In this document: positions 6,373 through 15,221 of the stretch, one piece after another | How the letters are laid out: the number at the start of each line of letters is the position of its first letter | Position numbering within the stretch: the stretch's first letter is position 1 | Notes under the pieces: model-generated | Told to the model about the DNA's origin: nothing | The model's input: only the letters and a program-made list of their open reading frames with translations | Databases searched by the model: none | Position numbers and translations under genes: made by a program | IMG/VR virus record: IMGVR_UViG_2740892031_000002 | Reading direction: 5' to 3' (one strand) | DNA length: 29,553 nucleotides | Source of the DNA: a virus | Taxonomy: Duplodnaviria > Heunggongvirae > Uroviricota > Caudoviricetes

Positions 6373-6644
6373 GTATTCGTATTGAAATTGGCGAACGTTA
6401 TGTCGTTACCAGTGACAGCTTTCAGTTTATTCTCCACGAGAAAAAGAGAGCGGAAAGCGGTAAAAACGCCGGTCAGGAATGGCTGGCGGTGGTTGGTTAT
6501 TACCCGAAATTAAGCCAGCTCGTTTCCGGCCTGATGCATCACGATATTCTGACCGGAAGCGCAAAGTCTTTTGCTGATTTAAACGCGCAGGTTGAGCAAC
6601 TCAGCAAGCGTTGCTCAGAGGCTTTTGGCTCATATGGCCGTTAA
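6369..6644 (+). CDS. Small early protein at the P2 orf83 position
   Basis: 91-aa ORF; stop overlaps the start of A. Confidence 0.6.
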   Translation: MSIRIEIGERYVVTSDSFQFILHEKKRAESGKNAGQEWLAVVGYYPKLSQLVSGLMHHDILTGSAKSFADLNAQVEQLSKRCSEAFGSYGR

Positions 6645-8934
6645 AGCCTCCGGGCGTTTTGTCCCTCCGTCAGCATTTGCTGCAGGCACCGGTAAGGCGT
6701 TTACCGGTGCTTATGCATGGAACGCGCCACGCGAGGCCGTCGGGCGCGAAAGACCCCTTACACGTGACGAGATGCGTCAGGTGCAAGGTGTTTTATCCAC
6801 GATTAACCGCCTGCCTTACTTTTTGCGCTCGCTGTTTACTTCACGCTATGACCACATCCGGCGCAATAAAAGCCCGGTGCACGGGTTTTATTTCCTCACA
6901 TCCACTTTTCAGCGTCGTTTATGGCCGCGCATTGAGCGTGTGAATCAGCGCCATGAAATGAACACCGACGCGTCGTTACTGTTTCTGGCAGAGCGTGACC
7001 ACTATGCGCGCCTGCCGGGAATGAATGACAAGGAGCTGAAAAAGTTTGCTGCCCGTATCTCATCGCAGCTTTTCATGATGTATGGGGAACTCAGTGATGC
7101 CTGGGTGGATGCGCATGGCGAAAAAGAATCGCTGTTTACGGATGAGGCGCAGGCTCACCTCTATGGTCATGTTGCTGGCGCTGCACGTGCTTTCAATATT
7201 TCCCCTCTCTACTGGAAAAAATACCGTAAAGGGCAGATGACCACGAGGCAGGCATATTCTGCCATTGCCCGTCTGTTTAACGATGAGTGGTGGACTCATC
7301 AGCTTAAAGGCCAGCGTATGCGCTGGCATGAAGCGTTACTGATAGCTGTCGGGGAGGTCAATAAAGACCGTTCTCCTTATGCCAGTAAACACGCCATTCG
7401 TGATGTGCGTGCGCGCCGCCAGGCAAATCTGGAATTTCTTAAATCGTGTGACCTTGAAAACAGGGAAACCGGCGAGCGCATCGACCTTATCAGTAAGGTG
7501 ATGGGCAGTATTTCTAATCCTGAAATTCGCCGGATGGAGCTGATGAACACCATTGCCGGTATTGAGCGTTACGCCGCCGCAGAGGGTGATGTGGGGATGT
7601 TTATCACGCTGACCGCGCCGTCAAAGTATCACCCGACACGTCAGGTCAGAAAAGGCGAAAGTAAAACCGTTCAGCTTAATCACGGCTGGAACGATGAGGC
7701 ATTTAATCCAAAGGATGCGCAGCGTTATCTCTGCCGCATCTGGAGCCTGATGCGCACGGCATTCAAGGATAATGATTTACAGGTCTACGGTTTGCGTGTC
7801 GTCGAGCCACACCACGACGGAACGCCGCACTGGCATATGATGCTTTTTTGTAATCCACGCCAGCGTAACCAGATTATCGAAATCATGCGTCGCTACGCGC
7901 TCAAAGAGGATGGAGACGAAAGAGGAGCTGCGCGAAACCGTTTTCAGGCAAAACACCTTAACCGGGGCGGTGCTGCGGGATATATCGCGAAATACATTTC
8001 AAAAAACATCGACGGCTATGCACTGGATGGTCAGCTCGATAACGATACCGGTAAGCCGCTTAAAGATACTGCCGCGGCTGTTACCGCATGGGCGTCAACG
8101 TGGCGCATTCCGCAATTTAAAACGGTTGGACTGCCGACAATGGGGGCTTACCGTGAACTACGCAAATTGCCTCGCGGCGTCAGTATTGCTGATGAGTTTG
8201 ACGAACGCGTCGAGGCTGCTCGCGCTGCCGCAGACAGTGGTGATTTTGCGTTGTATATCAGCGCGCAGGGTGGGGCAAATGTCCCGCGCGATTGTCAGAC
8301 TGTCAGGGTCGCCCGTAGCCCGTCGGATGACGTTAACGAGTACGAGGAAGAAGTCGAGAGAGTGGTCGGCATTTACGCGCCGCATCTCGGCGCGCGTCAT
8401 ATTCATATCACCAGAACGACGGACTGGCGCATTGTGCCGAAAGTTCCGGTCGTTGAGCCTTTGACTTTAAAAAGCGGCATCGCCGCGCCTCGGAGTCCTG
8501 TCAATAACTGTGGAAAGCTCACCGGTGGTGATACTTCGTTACCGGCTCCCACACCTTCTGAACACGCCGCAGCAGTGCTTAATCTGGTTGATGACGGTGT
8601 TATCGAATGGAGTGACCCGGAGGTTGTGAGGGCGCTCAGAGGTGCATTAAAATGCGGACTGAGAACACCAAATCGTCAGCAAAGAAACGGAAGTCCGTTA
8701 AAACCGCATGAAATAGCGCCATCAGCCAGGCTGACCAGGTCGGAGCGATTGCAAATTACCCGTATTCGCGTTGATCTTGCTCAGAACGGTATCAGACCTC
8801 AGCGATGGGAGCTTGAGTCGCTGGCGCGTGGGGCAACCGTAAATTATGACGGGAAAAAATTCACGTATCCGGTCGCTGATGAGTGGCCGGGATATTCAAC
8901 TATAACAGAGTGGAATCAATTTGATGACGGGTAA
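6634..8934 (+). CDS. A: Replication initiation endonuclease A (rolling-circle initiator)
   Basis: Tracked ORF 6592..8934; P2 gpA begins MAVKASGRFVPPSAFAAGTGK, which corresponds to ATG at 6634 (766 aa). Long-range identity to P2 A by eye. Confidence 0.93.
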   Translation: MAVKASGRFVPPSAFAAGTGKAFTGAYAWNAPREAVGRERPLTRDEMRQVQGVLSTINRLPYFLRSLFTSRYDHIRRNKSPVHGFYFLTSTFQRRLWPRIERVNQRHEMNTDASLLFLAERDHYARLPGMNDKELKKFAARISSQLFMMYGELSDAWVDAHGEKESLFTDEAQAHLYGHVAGAARAFNISPLYWKKYRKGQMTTRQAYSAIARLFNDEWWTHQLKGQRMRWHEALLIAVGEVNKDRSPYASKHAIRDVRARRQANLEFLKSCDLENRETGERIDLISKVMGSISNPEIRRMELMNTIAGIERYAAAEGDVGMFITLTAPSKYHPTRQVRKGESKTVQLNHGWNDEAFNPKDAQRYLCRIWSLMRTAFKDNDLQVYGLRVVEPHHDGTPHWHMMLFCNPRQRNQIIEIMRRYALKEDGDERGAARNRFQAKHLNRGGAAGYIAKYISKNIDGYALDGQLDNDTGKPLKDTAAAVTAWASTWRIPQFKTVGLPTMGAYRELRKLPRGVSIADEFDERVEAARAAADSGDFALYISAQGGANVPRDCQTVRVARSPSDDVNEYEEEVERVVGIYAPHLGARHIHITRTTDWRIVPKVPVVEPLTLKSGIAAPRSPVNNCGKLTGGDTSLPAPTPSEHAAAVLNLVDDGVIEWSDPEVVRALRGALKCGLRTPNRQQRNGSPLKPHEIAPSARLTRSERLQITRIRVDLAQNGIRPQRWELESLARGATVNYDGKKFTYPVADEWPGYSTITEWNQFDDG

Positions 8935-9065
8935 TCGAATGGAATGATCCGGCGGTCGTGAGGGCGCTCAGAGGTGCATTAAAACACGGTCTGAGAATAC
9001 CAAATCGTCAGCAAAGAAACGGAAGTCCGTTAAAACCGCTTGCATTTGTGCCATCGCGAGGCTGA
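8921..9065. repeat. Degenerate direct repeat of the 3' end of gene A (partner copy at about 8588-8734)
   Basis: ~145 bp starting ttgatgacgg...atcgaatgga...gtgagggcgctcagaggtgcattaaaa... recurs just after the A stop codon, similar but clearly diverged by eye; the second copy is out of frame and non-coding. Confidence 0.85.
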
Positions 9066-9351
9066 TCAAATCAGGTTTGTGATAAATTACTAGTATTTAT
9101 ATAGACCTCGCTCAGTATGGCATCACACAGAAGTAATGTAAGCGTGGGGGGCGTGGTGTACCATTGATATACGACGGTCGAAAATTTACATAGCCGATTT
9201 CCTGTGATTGGTTTTCGTTATGCACTCTTTTCTGAAGAGATTAACTACTGATAGACTCAGGTTGGATGTCAGAATCGCTATAGATTTCTTGCTATATATG
9301 TATTTTTCAATGAAAATGATCTCTGATTTAAACTGTAGTAAGGTGATTGGT

Positions 9352-9840
9352 ATGGATGGTTTATGGGAAAAAATATCGTCATATAATATATTTAATAATC
9401 TTTTTCCAGGTGCTCTTTTTATTTATCTTCTTGAGAGAATGACGAATATCGTTTTATCTGGCGATGATTTAATAAAAAATGTTGTCCTCTATTATTTTGT
9501 TGGCTTAGTCATTGGCCGGATTGGTTCTATCGTATTGGAACCTTTTTTAAAACTATCGCGTTTGATTAAGTTTGCTCCTTATAAAGATTATGTGTCAGCA
9601 TGTGGTGTGGATGGAAAAATTGAAACTTTGCAAGAGATTGCGAATATGTATAGGACGATATTTTCAATGTCAATTATTCTTTTGGCGACATTGTGCGTTG
9701 TAGGACGGTTTACTGGCGAGACATATGGCTTATCTAAAATAACGTTGGCGGTTTTTGCTATTTTGTTTGTTGTCTCATATATTAAACAAATAAGATACAT
9801 AATATATAGAGTAAATGCTGTTAATAATAAGCTGCCGTAA
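9352..9840 (+). CDS. Hypothetical small multi-pass membrane protein (about 4 predicted TM helices); hotspot cargo
   Basis: Tracked ORF 9208..9840; ATG at 9352 has an AAGGTGA Shine-Dalgarno 5 nt upstream (163 aa). Four hydrophobic stretches (LFPGALFIYLL; VVLYYFVGLVIGRIGSIVL; IFSMSIILLATLCVV; ITLAVFAILFVVSYI). AT-rich; no homolog recognised. Confidence 0.65.
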   Translation: MDGLWEKISSYNIFNNLFPGALFIYLLERMTNIVLSGDDLIKNVVLYYFVGLVIGRIGSIVLEPFLKLSRLIKFAPYKDYVSACGVDGKIETLQEIANMYRTIFSMSIILLATLCVVGRFTGETYGLSKITLAVFAILFVVSYIKQIRYIIYRVNAVNNKLP

Positions 9841-9850
9841 GGCAGCTTTT
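9829..9850. terminator. Bidirectional intrinsic terminator between convergent cargo genes
   Basis: Perfect 8-bp stem aagctgcc / ggcagctt with a gtaa loop that contains the stop codon of the membrane-protein gene, followed by a T-run. Confidence 0.7.
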
Positions 9851-9853
9851 GAA

Positions 9854-10945
9854 TTATTCTTCGGTTCTATAGTTACTAATGTATGATCGTGGAGTGGCTG
9901 TTTTCCATCCTGCCCTTTCAGGAGCATTATAAAAATGGTACTTACCAAGCCCCTCGGTGGCGATAACTTTCGCTCCTCGTCGAGTAAAGGCATTAATTAC
10001 AGCTTGATGGGGATGTTTATCTGAACCTGGGGCACATGATACAAATGCGGTTATCTCCCTTTTTTCGCCTTCATTTACAATGTTACCAACAAGTTTATCG
10101 AGAACATCAGGGCCTACATTTCTCCGGCTACCATGATGAGGTACTTGAATGAATCTTAATGATTCTTTATTAATGTATTGGGAGGCTTGATCTAAGGCTG
10201 TTATACCAGCATCGCCAGTGAACACTAACGTTCTTCCATCAATCTCAAGTTTCAAAATGACACTTGAGTTATTTTGTGCCGAGGTGGTATCTTCATTATC
10301 AATACCTTCATCAGTAAACCATTCAGCAACGTAATCAATAAATTTCTTCGTTTTTTCAACTACAGACTCAAAGACTGCTTTTAGTACTTCAAATCCAGCT
10401 GTATCCTCAGCTTTTTTGGGCATTCTTGCGAAATCAGGTATTAGAGTCTCATAGTAAGATTGGGTTGGCCCGATAACAACCAGAGTAGCATTATCCCAGG
10501 TCATTCCTTGAAAAGGCTCTTTTATTTCAATTCCTTTTTTTTCCGCTAATTTGACAGCGTCATAAGCTTTTTGTAAGTTTTCTTTCATTCGATTTGCAAT
10601 ACTGGCATCAGTTATCCTGCCATCTGCAAACTCACTTGCGAGACCTTGATTATGTTCCCAAGGCTTATGAATCCAAAACTCTTTTACTTCTGCATTTTCT
10701 AGAACAGATGTAAGTCCACCGACGTGGTCACCATCGGGGTGTGTGGAGATAAGCAAGTCAATAGTTTTTGTGCGGTAGTATTTTTCAATATGCTCAATGA
10801 CTTGTTCTCCGGTGCTGGCATATCCTGCATCAATAACGACAACTTTTTGTTCATCTCTTGAACCATGTAGGTTTCCCCATCTGATGCAGATCGCATCGCC
10901 GCTTTTTTTTTCGCCAACAGCTAGAAAATCAATTTCGTAACCCAT
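9854..10945 (-). CDS. Metallo-beta-lactamase-fold hydrolase, ComEC/Rec2-like subtype (putative metal-dependent nuclease); hotspot cargo
   Basis: 363-aa ORF. ComEC-type MBL signatures in order: IDFLAVGEKKSGDAICIRW, KVVVIDAGY, LISTHPDGDHVGG (variant of the HxHxDH motif), LVFTGDAG, QVPHHGS. AT-rich. Confidence 0.8.
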   Translation of the reverse strand: MGYEIDFLAVGEKKSGDAICIRWGNLHGSRDEQKVVVIDAGYASTGEQVIEHIEKYYRTKTIDLLISTHPDGDHVGGLTSVLENAEVKEFWIHKPWEHNQGLASEFADGRITDASIANRMKENLQKAYDAVKLAEKKGIEIKEPFQGMTWDNATLVVIGPTQSYYETLIPDFARMPKKAEDTAGFEVLKAVFESVVEKTKKFIDYVAEWFTDEGIDNEDTTSAQNNSSVILKLEIDGRTLVFTGDAGITALDQASQYINKESLRFIQVPHHGSRRNVGPDVLDKLVGNIVNEGEKREITAFVSCAPGSDKHPHQAVINAFTRRGAKVIATEGLGKYHFYNAPERAGWKTATPRSYISNYRTEE

Positions 10946-11107
10946 TCCATATCCTTATTAAACTGTGAATTAACATGAATCCAAGATGTTAAATCATATG
11001 GATAATAACGCAACTTTTCCGCAGTAAACACTGTGAGCGGATTTAATCTCGTCAGAACTAAAAGCAAGTAGTGTGACGAGGGACAATGAGTCTCTTTGGG
11101 GCGTTGG

Positions 11108-11545
11108 CTATGACACTGACGCAACCAGATTAACGCCGTGAGTCAGCAGATTTGTAATCACACCGGCAATGACCCCAGGAGTCCCATCTTTCACCGCACT
11201 GATCACTTTATCCCCCATCGTTTCATTTCCACCAAGCACCTCGGGTTTTTTGTTAAGAACTGTGAGCGCTTTTTCAGTAAGTCGAACATCGTAAAAATAC
11301 GACTGATGGTCTGTGTTGTACTGAATGTACCCGTTTTCACAGAGAAAATTGAATGTACCTTCAACCACACTACGCAACTGATTTAACGCTTTCATTTCTG
11401 GTGAGTTAAGTTGGTCAAAGTAGTCATCAGGTAGCGCGGCGTTAAATTTGTCGTAGTTAATCACCTGTGGTACGGGAAAATTTTCCCATAGTACTGCAAA
11501 GATTTCCGCCGTTTGTTGGTTAAATAAATCGAGATTTTTCGACAT
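11108..11545 (-). CDS. Hypothetical protein (~145 aa), upstream of and co-directional with the MBL hydrolase
   Basis: Tracked ORF 11108..11647 (179 aa). In-frame ATGs at 11557 and 11545 give 149 or 145 aa; none of the three starts has a convincing Shine-Dalgarno, so the start is uncertain. Hydrophobic, glycine-rich C-terminus (GTPGVIAGVITNLLTHGVNLVASVS). No homolog recognised. Confidence 0.6.
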   Translation of the reverse strand: MSKNLDLFNQQTAEIFAVLWENFPVPQVINYDKFNAALPDDYFDQLNSPEMKALNQLRSVVEGTFNFLCENGYIQYNTDHQSYFYDVRLTEKALTVLNKKPEVLGGNETMGDKVISAVKDGTPGVIAGVITNLLTHGVNLVASVS

Positions 11546-11873
11546 GCAAAATTCCATTTCTTTTGATAATGAGTGGGTTAAACGCTGGACGAGGCAGATT
11601 ACCACTCTGGCACAAAACAATGATCTTAGTTCACGCGAAGTTGACATATATACCGATAAGCTGGTTGCGCAGGCAACTAGCGTAGAACTCGCTCAGGTCA
11701 TCAAGATGCTATTGAATTATATTCGAATGAACAAATAAAATGATCTGTATCAATCTGTTAGGTGTCGTTTGTAAAAATGTGTGGACACGATTGTTCTGCT
11801 AATTGTTGTCAACATGTGCGTCAACAGTGAGATTGGTGCATTGCGCGGCCAGTGACAACTTTAAAAATTGGCC

Positions 11874-11903
11874 AAAACCGGCACTATGAATGCCGGTTTT
11901 TTT
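11874..11903 (+). terminator. Rho-independent terminator (right boundary of the cargo hotspot, before cos)
   Basis: Stem aaaccggca / tgccggttt with 7-nt loop, followed by tttttttgtgttttttt. Confidence 0.75.
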
Positions 11904-12212: not shown

Positions 12213-12236
12213 GTAAAAAAGCCGCCCGCAGGCGGC
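12213..12236 (-). terminator. Rho-independent terminator downstream of Q
   Basis: On the minus strand: GC stem gccgcc / ggcggc with a 4-nt loop followed by a run of six T, immediately after the Q stop codon. Confidence 0.75.
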
Positions 12237-12241
12237 GATGT

Positions 12242-13276
12242 TCAGCCGTTGTCAGTGTCAAGTGAGTAGTTTTTAAAGCGGATGACCTCCTGACCGAGCC
12301 AGTCGTTTATCTCGCGGATCCTGTCCTGTAACGGGATAAGCTCATTGCGGACAAAGACCTTTGCCACTTTCTCAATATCACCCAGCGACCCGACGTTCTC
12401 CGGCTTGCCACCCATCAACTGAAAGGGGATGCGGTGCGCGTCCAGCAGGTCAGCGGCGCTGGCTTTTTTGATATTAAAAAAATCGTCCTTCGTCGCCACT
12501 TCACTGAGGGGGATAATTTTAATGCCGTCGGCTTTCCCCTGTGGGGCATAGAGAAACAGATTTTTAAAGTTATTGCGGCCTTTCGACTTCACCATGTTTT
12601 CGCGAAGCATTTCGATATCGTTGCGATCCTGCACGGCATCGGTGACGTACATGATGTATCCGGCATGTGCGCCATTTTCGTAATACTTGCGGCGGAACAG
12701 CGTGGCCGACTCATTCAGCCAGGCAGAGTTAAGGGCGCTGAGATATTCCGGCAGGCCGTACAGCTCCTGATTAATATCCGGCTCCAGCAGGTGAAACAAG
12801 GAGCCGGACGCGAAGGCTGTCGGCTCGTTGAAGGACGGCACCCACCAGTAAACATCCTCCTCCACGCCACGGCGGGTATATTTTGCCGGTGAGGTTTCCA
12901 GTCTGATGACCTTACCGGTGGTGCTGTAACGCTTTTCCAGAAACGCATTACCGAACACCAGAAAATCCAGCACAAAGCGGCTGAAATCCTGCTGGGACAG
13001 CCACGGATGCGGGATAAATGTCGAGGCCAGAATATTACGTTTGACGTAAATCGGTGAGCTGTGATGCACGGCAGCACGCAGGCTTTTTGCCAGACCAGTA
13101 AAGCTGACCGGTGGTTCATACCATCTGCCGTTACTGATGCACTCGACGTAATCCAGAATGTCACGGCGGTCGAGTACCGGCACCGGCTCACCAAAGGTGA
13201 ATGCTTCCATTTTCGGGGCGCTGGCGGTCATTTTTTTTGCCGCAGGTTGCTGTGTTTTCCCTTTTTTCTTGCTCAT
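12242..13276 (-). CDS. Q: Portal protein
   Basis: 344-aa ORF, same length and position as P2 gpQ; start overlaps the P stop. Confidence 0.9.
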   Translation of the reverse strand: MSKKKGKTQQPAAKKMTASAPKMEAFTFGEPVPVLDRRDILDYVECISNGRWYEPPVSFTGLAKSLRAAVHHSSPIYVKRNILASTFIPHPWLSQQDFSRFVLDFLVFGNAFLEKRYSTTGKVIRLETSPAKYTRRGVEEDVYWWVPSFNEPTAFASGSLFHLLEPDINQELYGLPEYLSALNSAWLNESATLFRRKYYENGAHAGYIMYVTDAVQDRNDIEMLRENMVKSKGRNNFKNLFLYAPQGKADGIKIIPLSEVATKDDFFNIKKASAADLLDAHRIPFQLMGGKPENVGSLGDIEKVAKVFVRNELIPLQDRIREINDWLGQEVIRFKNYSLDTDNG

Positions 13277-15048
13277 CAGTAAAACTCCAGAATGGTGGAT
13301 GTCAGCGGGGTGCTGATACCGGCGGTGAGTGGCTCATTTAACAGGGCGTGCATGGTCGCCCAGGCGAGGTCGGCGTGGCTGGCTTCCTCGCTGCGGCTGG
13401 CCTCATAGGTGGCGCTGCGTCCGCTGCTGGTCATGGTCTTGCGGATAGCCATAAACGAGCTGGTGATGTCGGTGGCGCTGACGTCATATTCCAGACAGCC
13501 ACGGCGGATAACGTCTTTGGCCTTGAGCACCATTGCGGTTTTCATTTCCGGCGTGTAGCGGATGTCGCGCGCGGCGGGATAGAACGAGCGCACGAGCTGG
13601 AACACGCCGACACCGAGGCCGGTGGCATCAATTCCGATGTATTCGACGTTGTATTTTTCGGTGAGTTTGCGGATGGATTCCGCCTGAGTGGCAAAGTCCA
13701 TGCCTTTCCACTGGTGACGCTCAAGTATTCTGAATTTGCCACCGGCCACCACCGGCGGTGCCAGCACCACGCATCCGGCGCTGTCGCCACGGTGTGACGG
13801 GTCGTAACCAATCCATACAGGGCGGGAGCCGAACGGATTGGCGGCAAACGGCGCATAGTCTTCCCATTCTTCCAGCGTATCGACCATGCAGCGTTGCAGC
13901 TCCTCGAACGGGAACACCGACGCCTTGTCGTCAACAAATTCACACATGAACAGGTTTTTAAAATCGTCGGCGCTGTTTTCGCGTTTAAGCTGCTCAATGT
14001 CGAACAGCGTGCAGCCACCTTTCAGGGCGTCCTCAATGGTGACAATCTGCCGCCACTGGCCGTCCGCACAGAGAAGCCCACCGGCAAGGGCGTTATGACT
14101 GACGTCGATTTCCACACGTTCGGCGGCGCTGGCGCGTCCCCGGTTGAACAGTTCACCCGACCAGAACGGGTAGGCGTCGTGCGCCAGCGTGGATGGGGTG
14201 GAGAAATAGGTCGAACGCAGGTGACTCTGTGAGGCCATACCTGATGCCACCTTACGCAGTACCTGAAAATTCGGGATCCAGAAAATCTCATCGACGTACA
14301 GGTCGCCGTTATGGCTCTGTGCGGTGTTGGAGTTGGTGCCGAGAAAAATCAGTTTTGCGCCGTTATTGCCCAGGACAATCGGGTCACCGGTCAGGTCAAC
14401 GTCAACCAGACGGGCAAAGGCGATGATGTATTCGCGGAACACATACGCCTGCGTTTTACTGGCCGACAGAAAAATCTGGTTATGACCGGTTTTCAGGGCG
14501 CGCAGCAGCGCCTCGCGGGAAAAATAAAACGTTGCGCCAATCTGGCGGGATTTCAGAATATCGCGGATGCGGTGCTCAAGCCCGGCGCGATACCAGTGCA
14601 GCTGATAGTCGAAAGACTGCTTAAAGAAAATCTGCTCCAGCTTTTCGATGGCCTCGTCACTGAAAAAATTCTTTTTCGGTTTGCGACGCCCGCCTTTGTT
14701 GCGGTTAGCGACGTTCGGATTAAGGTCTGCCTCGTTGCCGGTCTGACTGTAGCGGTTTACCCGTGCCAGTCGTTCAATCTGGCGTCCGAGCAGGTCAATT
14801 TCCTTGAAGTCACCGCCGGTTTTCTGCGGTTTGATGATGAGCTGGGTCAGTCGCGCTTCCAGACTCATTTCGACACGGCTGATGGGGGCAACGCTGTCCC
14901 AGCCGTCGCGCTGTTTCCAGCTCTGCACCGTCGGGCGTTTCATCTGCAACATGGCGGCAATCTGCGGCACGGAAAACCCCTGCCAGTACAGCAGCGCCGC
15001 CTGACGACGCGGGTCGTGTAAAAGAGTGGTGTCTGTGGTGATGGTCAT
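13276..15048 (-). CDS. P: Terminase large (ATPase) subunit
   Basis: Tracked ORF 13276..15078; P2 gpP begins MTITTDTTLLHDPRRQAA, which corresponds to ATG at 15048 (590 aa). Confidence 0.9.
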   Translation of the reverse strand: MTITTDTTLLHDPRRQAALLYWQGFSVPQIAAMLQMKRPTVQSWKQRDGWDSVAPISRVEMSLEARLTQLIIKPQKTGGDFKEIDLLGRQIERLARVNRYSQTGNEADLNPNVANRNKGGRRKPKKNFFSDEAIEKLEQIFFKQSFDYQLHWYRAGLEHRIRDILKSRQIGATFYFSREALLRALKTGHNQIFLSASKTQAYVFREYIIAFARLVDVDLTGDPIVLGNNGAKLIFLGTNSNTAQSHNGDLYVDEIFWIPNFQVLRKVASGMASQSHLRSTYFSTPSTLAHDAYPFWSGELFNRGRASAAERVEIDVSHNALAGGLLCADGQWRQIVTIEDALKGGCTLFDIEQLKRENSADDFKNLFMCEFVDDKASVFPFEELQRCMVDTLEEWEDYAPFAANPFGSRPVWIGYDPSHRGDSAGCVVLAPPVVAGGKFRILERHQWKGMDFATQAESIRKLTEKYNVEYIGIDATGLGVGVFQLVRSFYPAARDIRYTPEMKTAMVLKAKDVIRRGCLEYDVSATDITSSFMAIRKTMTSSGRSATYEASRSEEASHADLAWATMHALLNEPLTAGISTPLTSTILEFY

Positions 15049-15221
15049 GAATACCTCGCCGTGATGAATACACGGCAAGGCTACTGAGTCGCGCCCCGCG
15101 ATTCGCTAAGGTGCTGTTGTGTCAGTGATAAGCCATCCGGGACTGATGGCGGAGGATGCGCATCGTCGGGAAACTGATGCCGACATGTGACTCCTCTAAT
15201 CACTATTCAGGACTCCTGACA
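15049..15221. promoter_or_regulatory. Divergent late promoter region between P (leftward) and O (rightward)
   Basis: Intergenic region between divergent late operons, as in P2; no specific Ogr-binding element or -10/-35 boxes could be pinned down by eye. Confidence 0.4.

Follow-up and report, generated by a model that had tools for sequence, protein, structure and literature searches.

Does a small membrane protein encoded beside the replication gene of a P2-like prophage act on its own, or is it one half of a larger device? The question arises from a P2-like prophage sequence of 29,553 nucleotides, here called the window, whose positions are used throughout. Between the replication endonuclease gene A and the portal gene Q, the window carries an island of three open reading frames (ORFs): a rightward gene for a 162-aa inner-membrane protein with four helices (4TM), a convergent leftward gene for a 363-aa hydrolase of the metallo-β-lactamase (MBL) fold, and a further leftward ORF (Table 1). 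In the original prediction, which was made from the nucleotide sequence, the 4TM gene was read as an independent superinfection-exclusion or abortive-infection gene standing next to a "leftward pair". We find a different grouping, in which the true partner of 4TM is the convergent MBL gene and the remaining leftward gene, of 144 aa, is separate. Defence or abortive infection is still the class of function for which the evidence argues best, but for a two-gene module rather than a stand-alone protein, since the MBL partner is conserved.

A catalogued pair in the gpA-gpQ hotspot

The island (9150-11850) is distinguished by its GC content, which is 0.31-0.44 as compared to 0.50-0.58 in the flanks, and by its location between A and Q, the cos-proximal gpA-gpQ hotspot where P2 carries orf91, tin and old. 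Both the AT-richness of the 4TM gene and its placement in the P2 accessory slot had been recognised from the outset. P2-like prophages hold a large store of the immunity genes of E. coli, and Rousset et al. (2022, PMC9122126) showed that this hotspot, the site of tin and old in P2, is a rich source of anti-phage systems. In that survey, Table S5B lists a system #34, "Lactamase_B", with 107 occurrences and the annotation "4 TM in protein 2". The pair of proteins given for it (MGYEIDF..., MDGLWEK...) comprises an MBL hydrolase identical to that of the window and a 4TM protein that differs from it by one residue. Similarly, the 4TM protein matches the PADLOC candidate profile PDC-M48A (PDLC04670; E 8.4e-51, residues 1-159 on profile positions 1-162 of 164), and the hydrolase matches PDC-M48B (PDLC04676; E 1.1e-100, residues 3-357 on positions 5-353 of 357). 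The window pair is therefore an instance of PDC-M48 and of system #34: both profiles match at full length, the hotspot is the same, and nothing separates them. The cassette has already been catalogued twice as a candidate and is not new as an object.

To define how tightly the two genes are linked, ORFs were called in all fetched loci and searched with the 4TM and MBL profiles, yielding 113 4TM genes. An MBL gene was directly adjacent and co-directional, in either order and often overlapping, at 70 of these 113 loci, and directly adjacent and convergent at 18 more, giving direct adjacency at 88. At a further 10 loci the 4TM gene lay downstream of an MBL gene and a gene of about 765 aa, an arrangement of the 6A-MBL type considered below, which brings the loci with an MBL partner to 98/113. 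The remaining loci either had an MBL gene at a distance of 66-1438 nt (6 loci) or had none, whether near a contig edge (5 loci) or away from one (4 loci). This conserved linkage indicates that the functional partner of 4TM is the convergent MBL hydrolase. The partners themselves are diverse, falling into at least 10 divergent clusters with identities below about 28%; a mirror-tree comparison of 4TM and MBL distances gave a significant but weak correlation (r 0.26), on which we do not rely. Natural fusions of 4TM and MBL were absent among the top 150 4TM matches from 1.84 billion representative proteins, all of which were stand-alone proteins of 158-216 aa.

Among directly adjacent pairs, the convergent layout was seen only in P2-like prophages. 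All 16 convergent loci with a traced origin (4 from genomes or phages, 12 from IMG/VR viral contigs) were enterobacterial or viral, and P2-like flanks were checked in three of them (L001, L002 and L106). Judging from gene order, the two genes appear to have been rearranged in P2-like prophages into convergent units that share a hairpin, as in the window, unlike in most other taxa, where PDC-M48 genes are usually co-directional and often overlap. In the literature searched, the primary 6A-MBL paper apart, we found no account of this P2-specific rearrangement with its conserved stop-in-loop hairpin, nor of three further links described below: that 4TM partners MBL proteins exclusively, that it can fill the third position of 6A-MBL operons, and that it is interchangeable with patatins. 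A search for MBL, transmembrane (TM) and P2 terms returned no relevant paper, and two studies that tested PADLOC candidates (PMC12881386, PMC12409345) examined candidates other than PDC-M48.

Among 5426 complete E. coli genomes the cassette is present in 45 (~0.8%), always chromosomal and in single copy, as two main alleles (≥99% and 60-80% nucleotide identity). The diverged allele is found with the same layout in the P2-like phages 12W, 11W, D8 and P24E6b. More widely, the 4TM family comprises 189 clusters in a 90% database and 1219 representatives at 50% identity, and is present in 268 species-representative genomes from Proteobacteria, Bacteroidota, Firmicutes, Nitrospirota, the candidate phyla radiation and others. 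The pair is carried by prophages, by a Bacteroidales conjugative transposon and by genomic islands. Its neighbours in other genomes include a type I restriction-modification system, DUF4365 genes and the backbones and cargo of conjugative transposons. A scan of 118 flanking proteins gave matches to AbiLi (5 proteins), AriA-like ATPases (5), MADS and HEC-01. These neighbourhoods are consistent with defence islands.

We also considered the 144-aa leftward gene as a component of the system and rejected it, because it assorts independently of the pair: it occurs without the pair in P2-like phages of Klebsiella, Salmonella and Escherichia (ST147-VIM1phi7.1, FSLSP004 and Midge), and phages P24E6b, D8 and 11W carry the pair but not this gene. 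It is probably independent hotspot cargo. Its product combines a soluble N-terminal region with a hydrophobic C-terminal tail that is rich in Gly and Val (GVIAGVITNLLTHGVNLVASVS).

A four-helix membrane protein and a ComEC-like hydrolase

The description of the rightward gene product as a small protein with four TM segments and no soluble domain is borne out by three lines of evidence. Hydropathy averaged over 35 homologues gave Kyte-Doolittle cores at about 17-31, 40-67, 104-118 and 127-141. An AlphaFold2 model was confident (predicted local distance difference test (pLDDT) 90.3, predicted TM-score 0.82), with helices at 2-31, 40-68, 77-86, 89-121 and 126-159. A Pfam scan returned no family and no soluble domain. 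Lysine and arginine residues are concentrated in the loop at 64-101 (loop 2; 7.0) and in the C-terminal tail (4.6), as compared to 0.9-1.5 in the other segments. This distribution points to an N-in/C-in topology in which the conserved polar motifs face the cytoplasm, so that 4TM is predicted to display a basic cytoplasmic loop of about 38 residues (64-101) together with a basic C-terminal tail. Nearly all invariant polar residues map to this predicted cytoplasmic face, where the conserved motifs are an N-terminal EKISSYNIFN, SE-NNMYRT within the loop, and an SY-KQ tail. The 35 sequences form a single tight family with 19 invariant residues, and phrog_11864 covers residues 1-162 of the 162-residue protein.

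What kind of membrane protein this is cannot be read from known families. The original prediction had named SLATT-like and holin-like families for comparison, but a Pfam search detected no relationship to the SLATT, S-4TM or holin families, and structure comparison matched 4TM to no solved fold. Searches of Pfam, NCBIfam and PDB sequences gave chance-level matches only (NEMP, ArlJ, CheX). In sum, 4TM has no Pfam or NCBIfam model and no solved structural relative, and no functional test of it was found in the literature. Many homologues in NCBI and UniRef bear the name "phosphohistidine phosphatase", whereas the entry WP_021561351, which is nearly identical, is labelled "hypothetical protein". 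We rejected the phosphatase name, as no His-phosphatase or SixA match was found in Pfam or NCBIfam, and it looks like a propagated misannotation.

The start of the 4TM gene was likewise settled by several observations. The mechanical ORF spans 9208-9840 and opens with TTG, yet this start is supported by neither homologues nor annotation and was rejected as a mere mechanical ORF limit. In contrast, RefSeq/PGAP calls the identical 489-bp coding sequence (WP_021561351) in loci of 100% identity, the PADLOC and PHROG profiles begin aligning at residue 1 of the 162-aa product, and the homologues all open with MDGLWEK or similar. Therefore, the ATG at 9352 is the true start, as first proposed together with its Shine-Dalgarno sequence, whose AGGTG does not vary among three diverged alleles (the window, phage 12W and Huaxiibacter). 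The ratio of nonsynonymous to synonymous substitution rates was 0.12-0.20 against alleles that are 60-66% identical in protein, showing that 4TM is a gene under purifying selection.

The partner is a recognisable enzyme. It matches Pfam Lactamase_B (6e-12) and retains the invariant metal motifs H69-x-D71-x-D73-H74, D245 and H270-H271; its AlphaFold2 model has a pLDDT of 87.6, and its sequence has no signal peptide, which places it in the cytoplasm. Among solved structures, the MBL domain of ComEC is closest (9ic4, E 3.7e-13) and the phosphorylcholine esterase Pce comes next; a PDB sequence search also matched ComEC. Because these nearest relatives are a nuclease-type domain and an esterase of this kind, sequence and model point to the chemistry of a binuclear-metal phosphodiesterase, most plausibly one acting on nucleic acid. 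The hydrolase also matches the PADLOC models LmuA (Lamassu), Avs1a (AVAST type 1) and RTasMBL (associated with DRT). It reaches 33.9 bits against the 6A-MBL enzyme model NF058524 (cutoff 220) and 49.2 bits, over its MBL part only, against TIGR00361 ComEC_Rec2 (cutoff 190).

Database names for this enzyme are at odds with these results. RefSeq labels E. coli copies "ComEC/Rec2 family competence protein", a reading that we rejected given the partial, below-cutoff TIGR00361 match, and it labels the homologue in NC_049389 "tail protein"; the hydrolase matches phrog_7043 ("tail protein") over positions 619-901 of the 1077 in that profile. For a stand-alone MBL enzyme of 363 aa, either name misleads. 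Our analysis thus corrects three database names, the third being the "phosphohistidine phosphatase" of the 4TM homologues.

Third genes of 6A-MBL operons and the possible role of the pair

A clue to the role of 4TM came from the 10 loci where it is separated from the MBL gene. Secondary sources describe 6A-MBL as an anti-phage system that involves ubiquitin-like elements (PMC13276650; bioRxiv 2025.09.30.679545), and the NCBIfam names of NF058523 and NF058524 also mark it as anti-phage. In these 10 loci the MBL gene and the intervening gene are bona fide 6A-MBL components: the intervening, Cap2/3-like gene scores 513-532 bits against NF058523 (cutoff 320), and the MBL proteins of L030 and L019 score about 358 bits against NF058524 (cutoff 220). 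The 4TM gene stands third, after both. In contrast, the window has no fused E2/E1/JAB (Cap2_3) gene among its three island ORFs and its MBL hydrolase falls below the NF058524 cutoff, although it belongs to the same broad MBL clade.

To examine this third position further, we collected 80 additional 6A-MBL loci (L113-L192) from a metagenome scan with the Cap2_3 profile and classified them by the gene in the third slot. A PDC-M48A 4TM gene followed immediately downstream in 8 of them (about 10%), a patatin-like phospholipase in 5 (the 3 scanned against Pfam were all PF01734), and another protein of about 200-250 aa with 2-5 predicted TM segments in about 31. Most sampled operons have a third co-directional gene immediately after Cap2_3 (for example L124 4324-5619, L129 6364-7077 and L143 3706-4299), encoding either a patatin-like phospholipase or one of several unannotated families of about 200-250 aa with a pair of hydrophobic helices at each end; the NCBIfam models cover the first two genes only. 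One such family aligns with the N-terminal TM hairpin of PDC-M48A (hhalign 77%, E 2e-5), which is only suggestive of a shared motif. Since 4TM exchanges places with patatins and other membrane proteins, these data favour an effector over an anchor. Such a repertoire is typical of abortive-infection effectors that attack the membrane, as in the cyclic oligonucleotide-based anti-phage signalling system (CBASS).

Two systems resemble the pair in other respects. The first is the "Hydrolase + 3TM/4TM" system of the P4 hotspot, an experimentally validated anti-T7 combination of a HAD-like hydrolase and a TM protein that its authors read as an abortive-infection effector (PMC9122126). It too couples a soluble hydrolase with a small protein of several TM segments, at a cos-proximal hotspot of a satellite or phage, but the hydrolase has a HAD rather than an MBL fold and the TM protein (209 aa, 3 TM) is unrelated in sequence. 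The second is CBASS, where TM effectors and the patatin CapV occupy an interchangeable operon slot, as in operons with Cap2 and Cap3. Unlike CBASS, the island has no CD-NTase among its three ORFs and no recognisable nucleotide-binding domain, and 4TM shows no sequence or fold similarity to CBASS membrane effectors.

Taken together, these observations lead us to favour, at roughly even chances, a two-gene defence module in which an infection-responsive MBL hydrolase controls 4TM and 4TM, as the abortive-infection effector, attacks the inner membrane. The membership of the pair, its conserved linkage, the topology features of 4TM and the ComEC-like fold of the partner are shown by the data above, and the defence function, the direction of control and the membrane damage are inferred from them. 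In such a module the cytoplasmic enzyme would be the catalytic component that responds to infection, and 4TM the membrane-acting effector under its control. When a competing phage infects, the hydrolase would act on the cytoplasmic face of 4TM formed by the three conserved motifs, either directly or through a hydrolysis product; 4TM would then compromise the inner membrane and the infection would be aborted. The MBL link and the 6A-MBL third slot thereby provide a concrete hypothesis on how MBL-based defence kills or signals, one that can conveniently be tested with the two-gene version from E. coli.

Several points weigh against this module. None of the papers searched names PDC-M48, no experimental test of it was found in the literature, and the pair is absent from the cloned and tested systems in the tables of PMC9122126. 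No fold similarity links 4TM to any known membrane effector. The TM counts of third genes come from a crude hydropathy rule, and the third-slot data come from sampled loci, the experimentally validated 6A-MBL operon apart. In addition, the 4TM family associates exclusively with MBL proteins and, for a pore-former, varies unusually little in sequence, such that a dedicated binding partner fits these data as well as an effector does. Finally, homologous MBL domains count as the effector elsewhere, as the LmuA, Avs1a and RTasMBL matches illustrate, and a nuclease could therefore do the killing here, with 4TM only its anchor or sensor.

This last point leads to the strongest alternative, which we consider possible though unlikely: the MBL hydrolase would be an effector nuclease or phosphodiesterase that 4TM tethers to the inner membrane or gates, perhaps in response to the entry of phage DNA or to a perturbed membrane, and incoming phage nucleic acid would be degraded without host suicide. 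The closest solved relative of the hydrolase is, after all, a nuclease-type domain of the membrane DNA transporter ComEC, and proteins of its clade match the models for effector or enzyme components in the Lamassu, AVAST type 1 and DRT systems. The exclusive association with MBLs, the highly conserved cytoplasmic face, the frequent translational coupling implied by overlapping ORFs and an enzyme that, lacking a signal peptide, meets 4TM on the cytoplasmic side all fit an anchored enzyme well. However, patatins and unrelated multi-TM proteins in the same 6A-MBL slot are hard to square with a mere anchor, and the MBLs are far more diverged than 4TM, which is the reverse of the usual conserved effector with a variable sensor.

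A more speculative variant, to which we give rather little weight, borrows from CBASS. Rather than the killing nuclease, the hydrolase would be an infection-activated signalling or sensor enzyme in a role like that of a CD-NTase, and the invariant face of 4TM would be the receptor for its product or for the enzyme itself. Under the same analogy, and equally tentatively, PDC-M48 may relate to 6A-MBL with 4TM or patatin as type I CBASS relates to type II. If true, MBL signalling would constitute a new enzyme-to-membrane-effector axis in prokaryotic immunity, and the P2 pair would be its minimal, genetically tractable E. coli form.

An improbable alternative is that the pair is an addiction or mobile-element maintenance module resembling a toxin-antitoxin system, with a membrane toxin, an enzymatic neutraliser and an anti-phage effect that is secondary or absent. 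Modules of this kind often include a small membrane toxin, and the pair does travel on prophages, on genomic islands and on a conjugative transposon of Bacteroidales. Of the cargo in the P2 hotspot, about a quarter does not serve defence (PMC9122126), and several tested PADLOC candidates gave no defence (PMC12409345; PMC12881386). Against this, the pair also stands beside restriction-modification and Abi genes in chromosomes, its family is tied to 6A-MBL defence, and convergent, separately promoted genes are atypical of a toxin-antitoxin pair.

Very improbable is the reading closest to the original prediction, in which 4TM is a stand-alone superinfection-exclusion or abortive-infection protein, independent of the hydrolase and expressed by read-through from the early operon. 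The gene does form a separate convergent transcription unit, a few homologues lack a nearby MBL gene (L044, L050, L062), and the scan detected no terminator on the + strand between A and the 4TM gene (8934-9352), so that early-operon read-through into the gene is possible during lytic growth. That part of the proposal stands, but read-through is not needed. A promoter-like element, TTGCTA-17-GAAAAT, precedes the gene, and its position is kept in phage 12W and approximately in Huaxiibacter, whose alleles are 73% identical in DNA; it matches the consensus at 8 of 12 positions, one short of the 9/12 that the promoter scan required. Any gene of use to the lysogen has to be transcribed during repression of the early operon, and the 4TM gene would have its own promoter in this element for that purpose. 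This, together with the 98 loci that keep an MBL partner, often with overlapping ORFs, argues against a protein acting alone.

A split ComEC-like device for DNA uptake or competence, as the RefSeq name implies, is barely credible, for although TIGR00361 and PDB ComEC match the MBL domain and ComEC/Rec2 likewise combines such a domain with a polytopic membrane part, the MBL domain alone matches, the parts are fused in ComEC/Rec2 with a large channel domain in a competence context, 4TM has no Competence-domain match and no detectable similarity to the ComEC channel domain (Pfam, structure comparison), and the pair is prophage cargo with no competence genes at its locus.

The shared hairpin and the surrounding features

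The two convergent genes are separated by only 14 nt, and the junction is formed by a perfect, GC-rich 8-bp hairpin (Table 1). The stop codon of 4TM (TAA, 9838-9840) sits inside its loop, as originally described, and the MBL stop (9854-9856) lies 6 nt past the hairpin. The predicted folding energy is -17.4 kcal/mol on the + strand (z -3.5) and -14.4 kcal/mol on the - strand (z -4.4). A hairpin was found at this junction in every convergent homologue checked, with arms that differ by lineage (AAGCTGCC/GGCAGCTT, ACAAGCTGCC/GGCAGCTTGT, GAACTGCCC/GGGCAGTTC and AAAAAAGCAGCC/GGCTGCTTTTTT), and in most of them a stop codon (TAA, TGA or TAG) again occupies the loop. Its proposed role as a terminator for both genes is less secure than its geometry. 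The terminator scan did not call the hairpin, owing to weak U-tracts on both strands (4 T in the 8 nt past the full stem on each). From its sequence, it is a probable bidirectional terminator or 3′-end stabiliser.

A comparable junction was observed in a 6A-MBL locus of Aeromonas enteropelogenes (L010, 296-4052). Here the 4TM gene and the MBL-Cap2_3 operon converge on a canonical bidirectional terminator (A6-stem-T8), again with the 4TM stop codon in the loop. Convergence must therefore have arisen more than once or been transferred.

Table 1. Positions of genes and candidate signals in and around the A-Q island of the window
Feature	Position	Strand	Basis or remark
Replication endonuclease A	6592-8934	+	ORF list; RefSeq annotation of identical locus agrees
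Candidate sigma-70 promoter: TTGCTA (9280-9285), 17-nt spacer, GAAAAT (9303-9308)	9280-9308	+	Putative
Shine-Dalgarno AAGGTG	9340-9345	+	6 nt ahead of ATG 9352
162-aa four-helix inner-membrane protein (4TM)	9352-9840	+	PDC-M48A, PHROG 11864, RefSeq WP_021561351
Perfect 8-bp hairpin: AAGCTGCC (9829-9836), loop GTAA (9837-9840), GGCAGCTT (9841-9848)	9829-9848	both	Between convergent genes
MBL-fold metallo-hydrolase, 363 aa	9854-10945	-	PDC-M48B, RefSeq WP_021561350
Third island ORF	11108-11647 (179-aa ORF); true gene 11108-11545, 144 aa from Met35	-	phrog_2266
Portal Q	12242-13276	-	ORF list; RefSeq annotation of identical locus agrees
Large terminase	13276-15078	-	ORF list

Comparison of alleles upstream of the MBL gene revealed no conserved promoter, its Shine-Dalgarno sequence apart. 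On the other side of the pair, about 350 nt (8935-9282) separate the end of A from the onset of similarity with the diverged 12W allele, and the first part of this interval matches the P2 backbone; in phage 12W only 115 nt lie between gpA and the start of the 4TM gene. At the opposite, Q-proximal and cos-side end of the island, strong terminator-like hairpins are present at 11874-11900 (+) and 12221-12236 (-), the latter directly after the stop codon of the portal gene.

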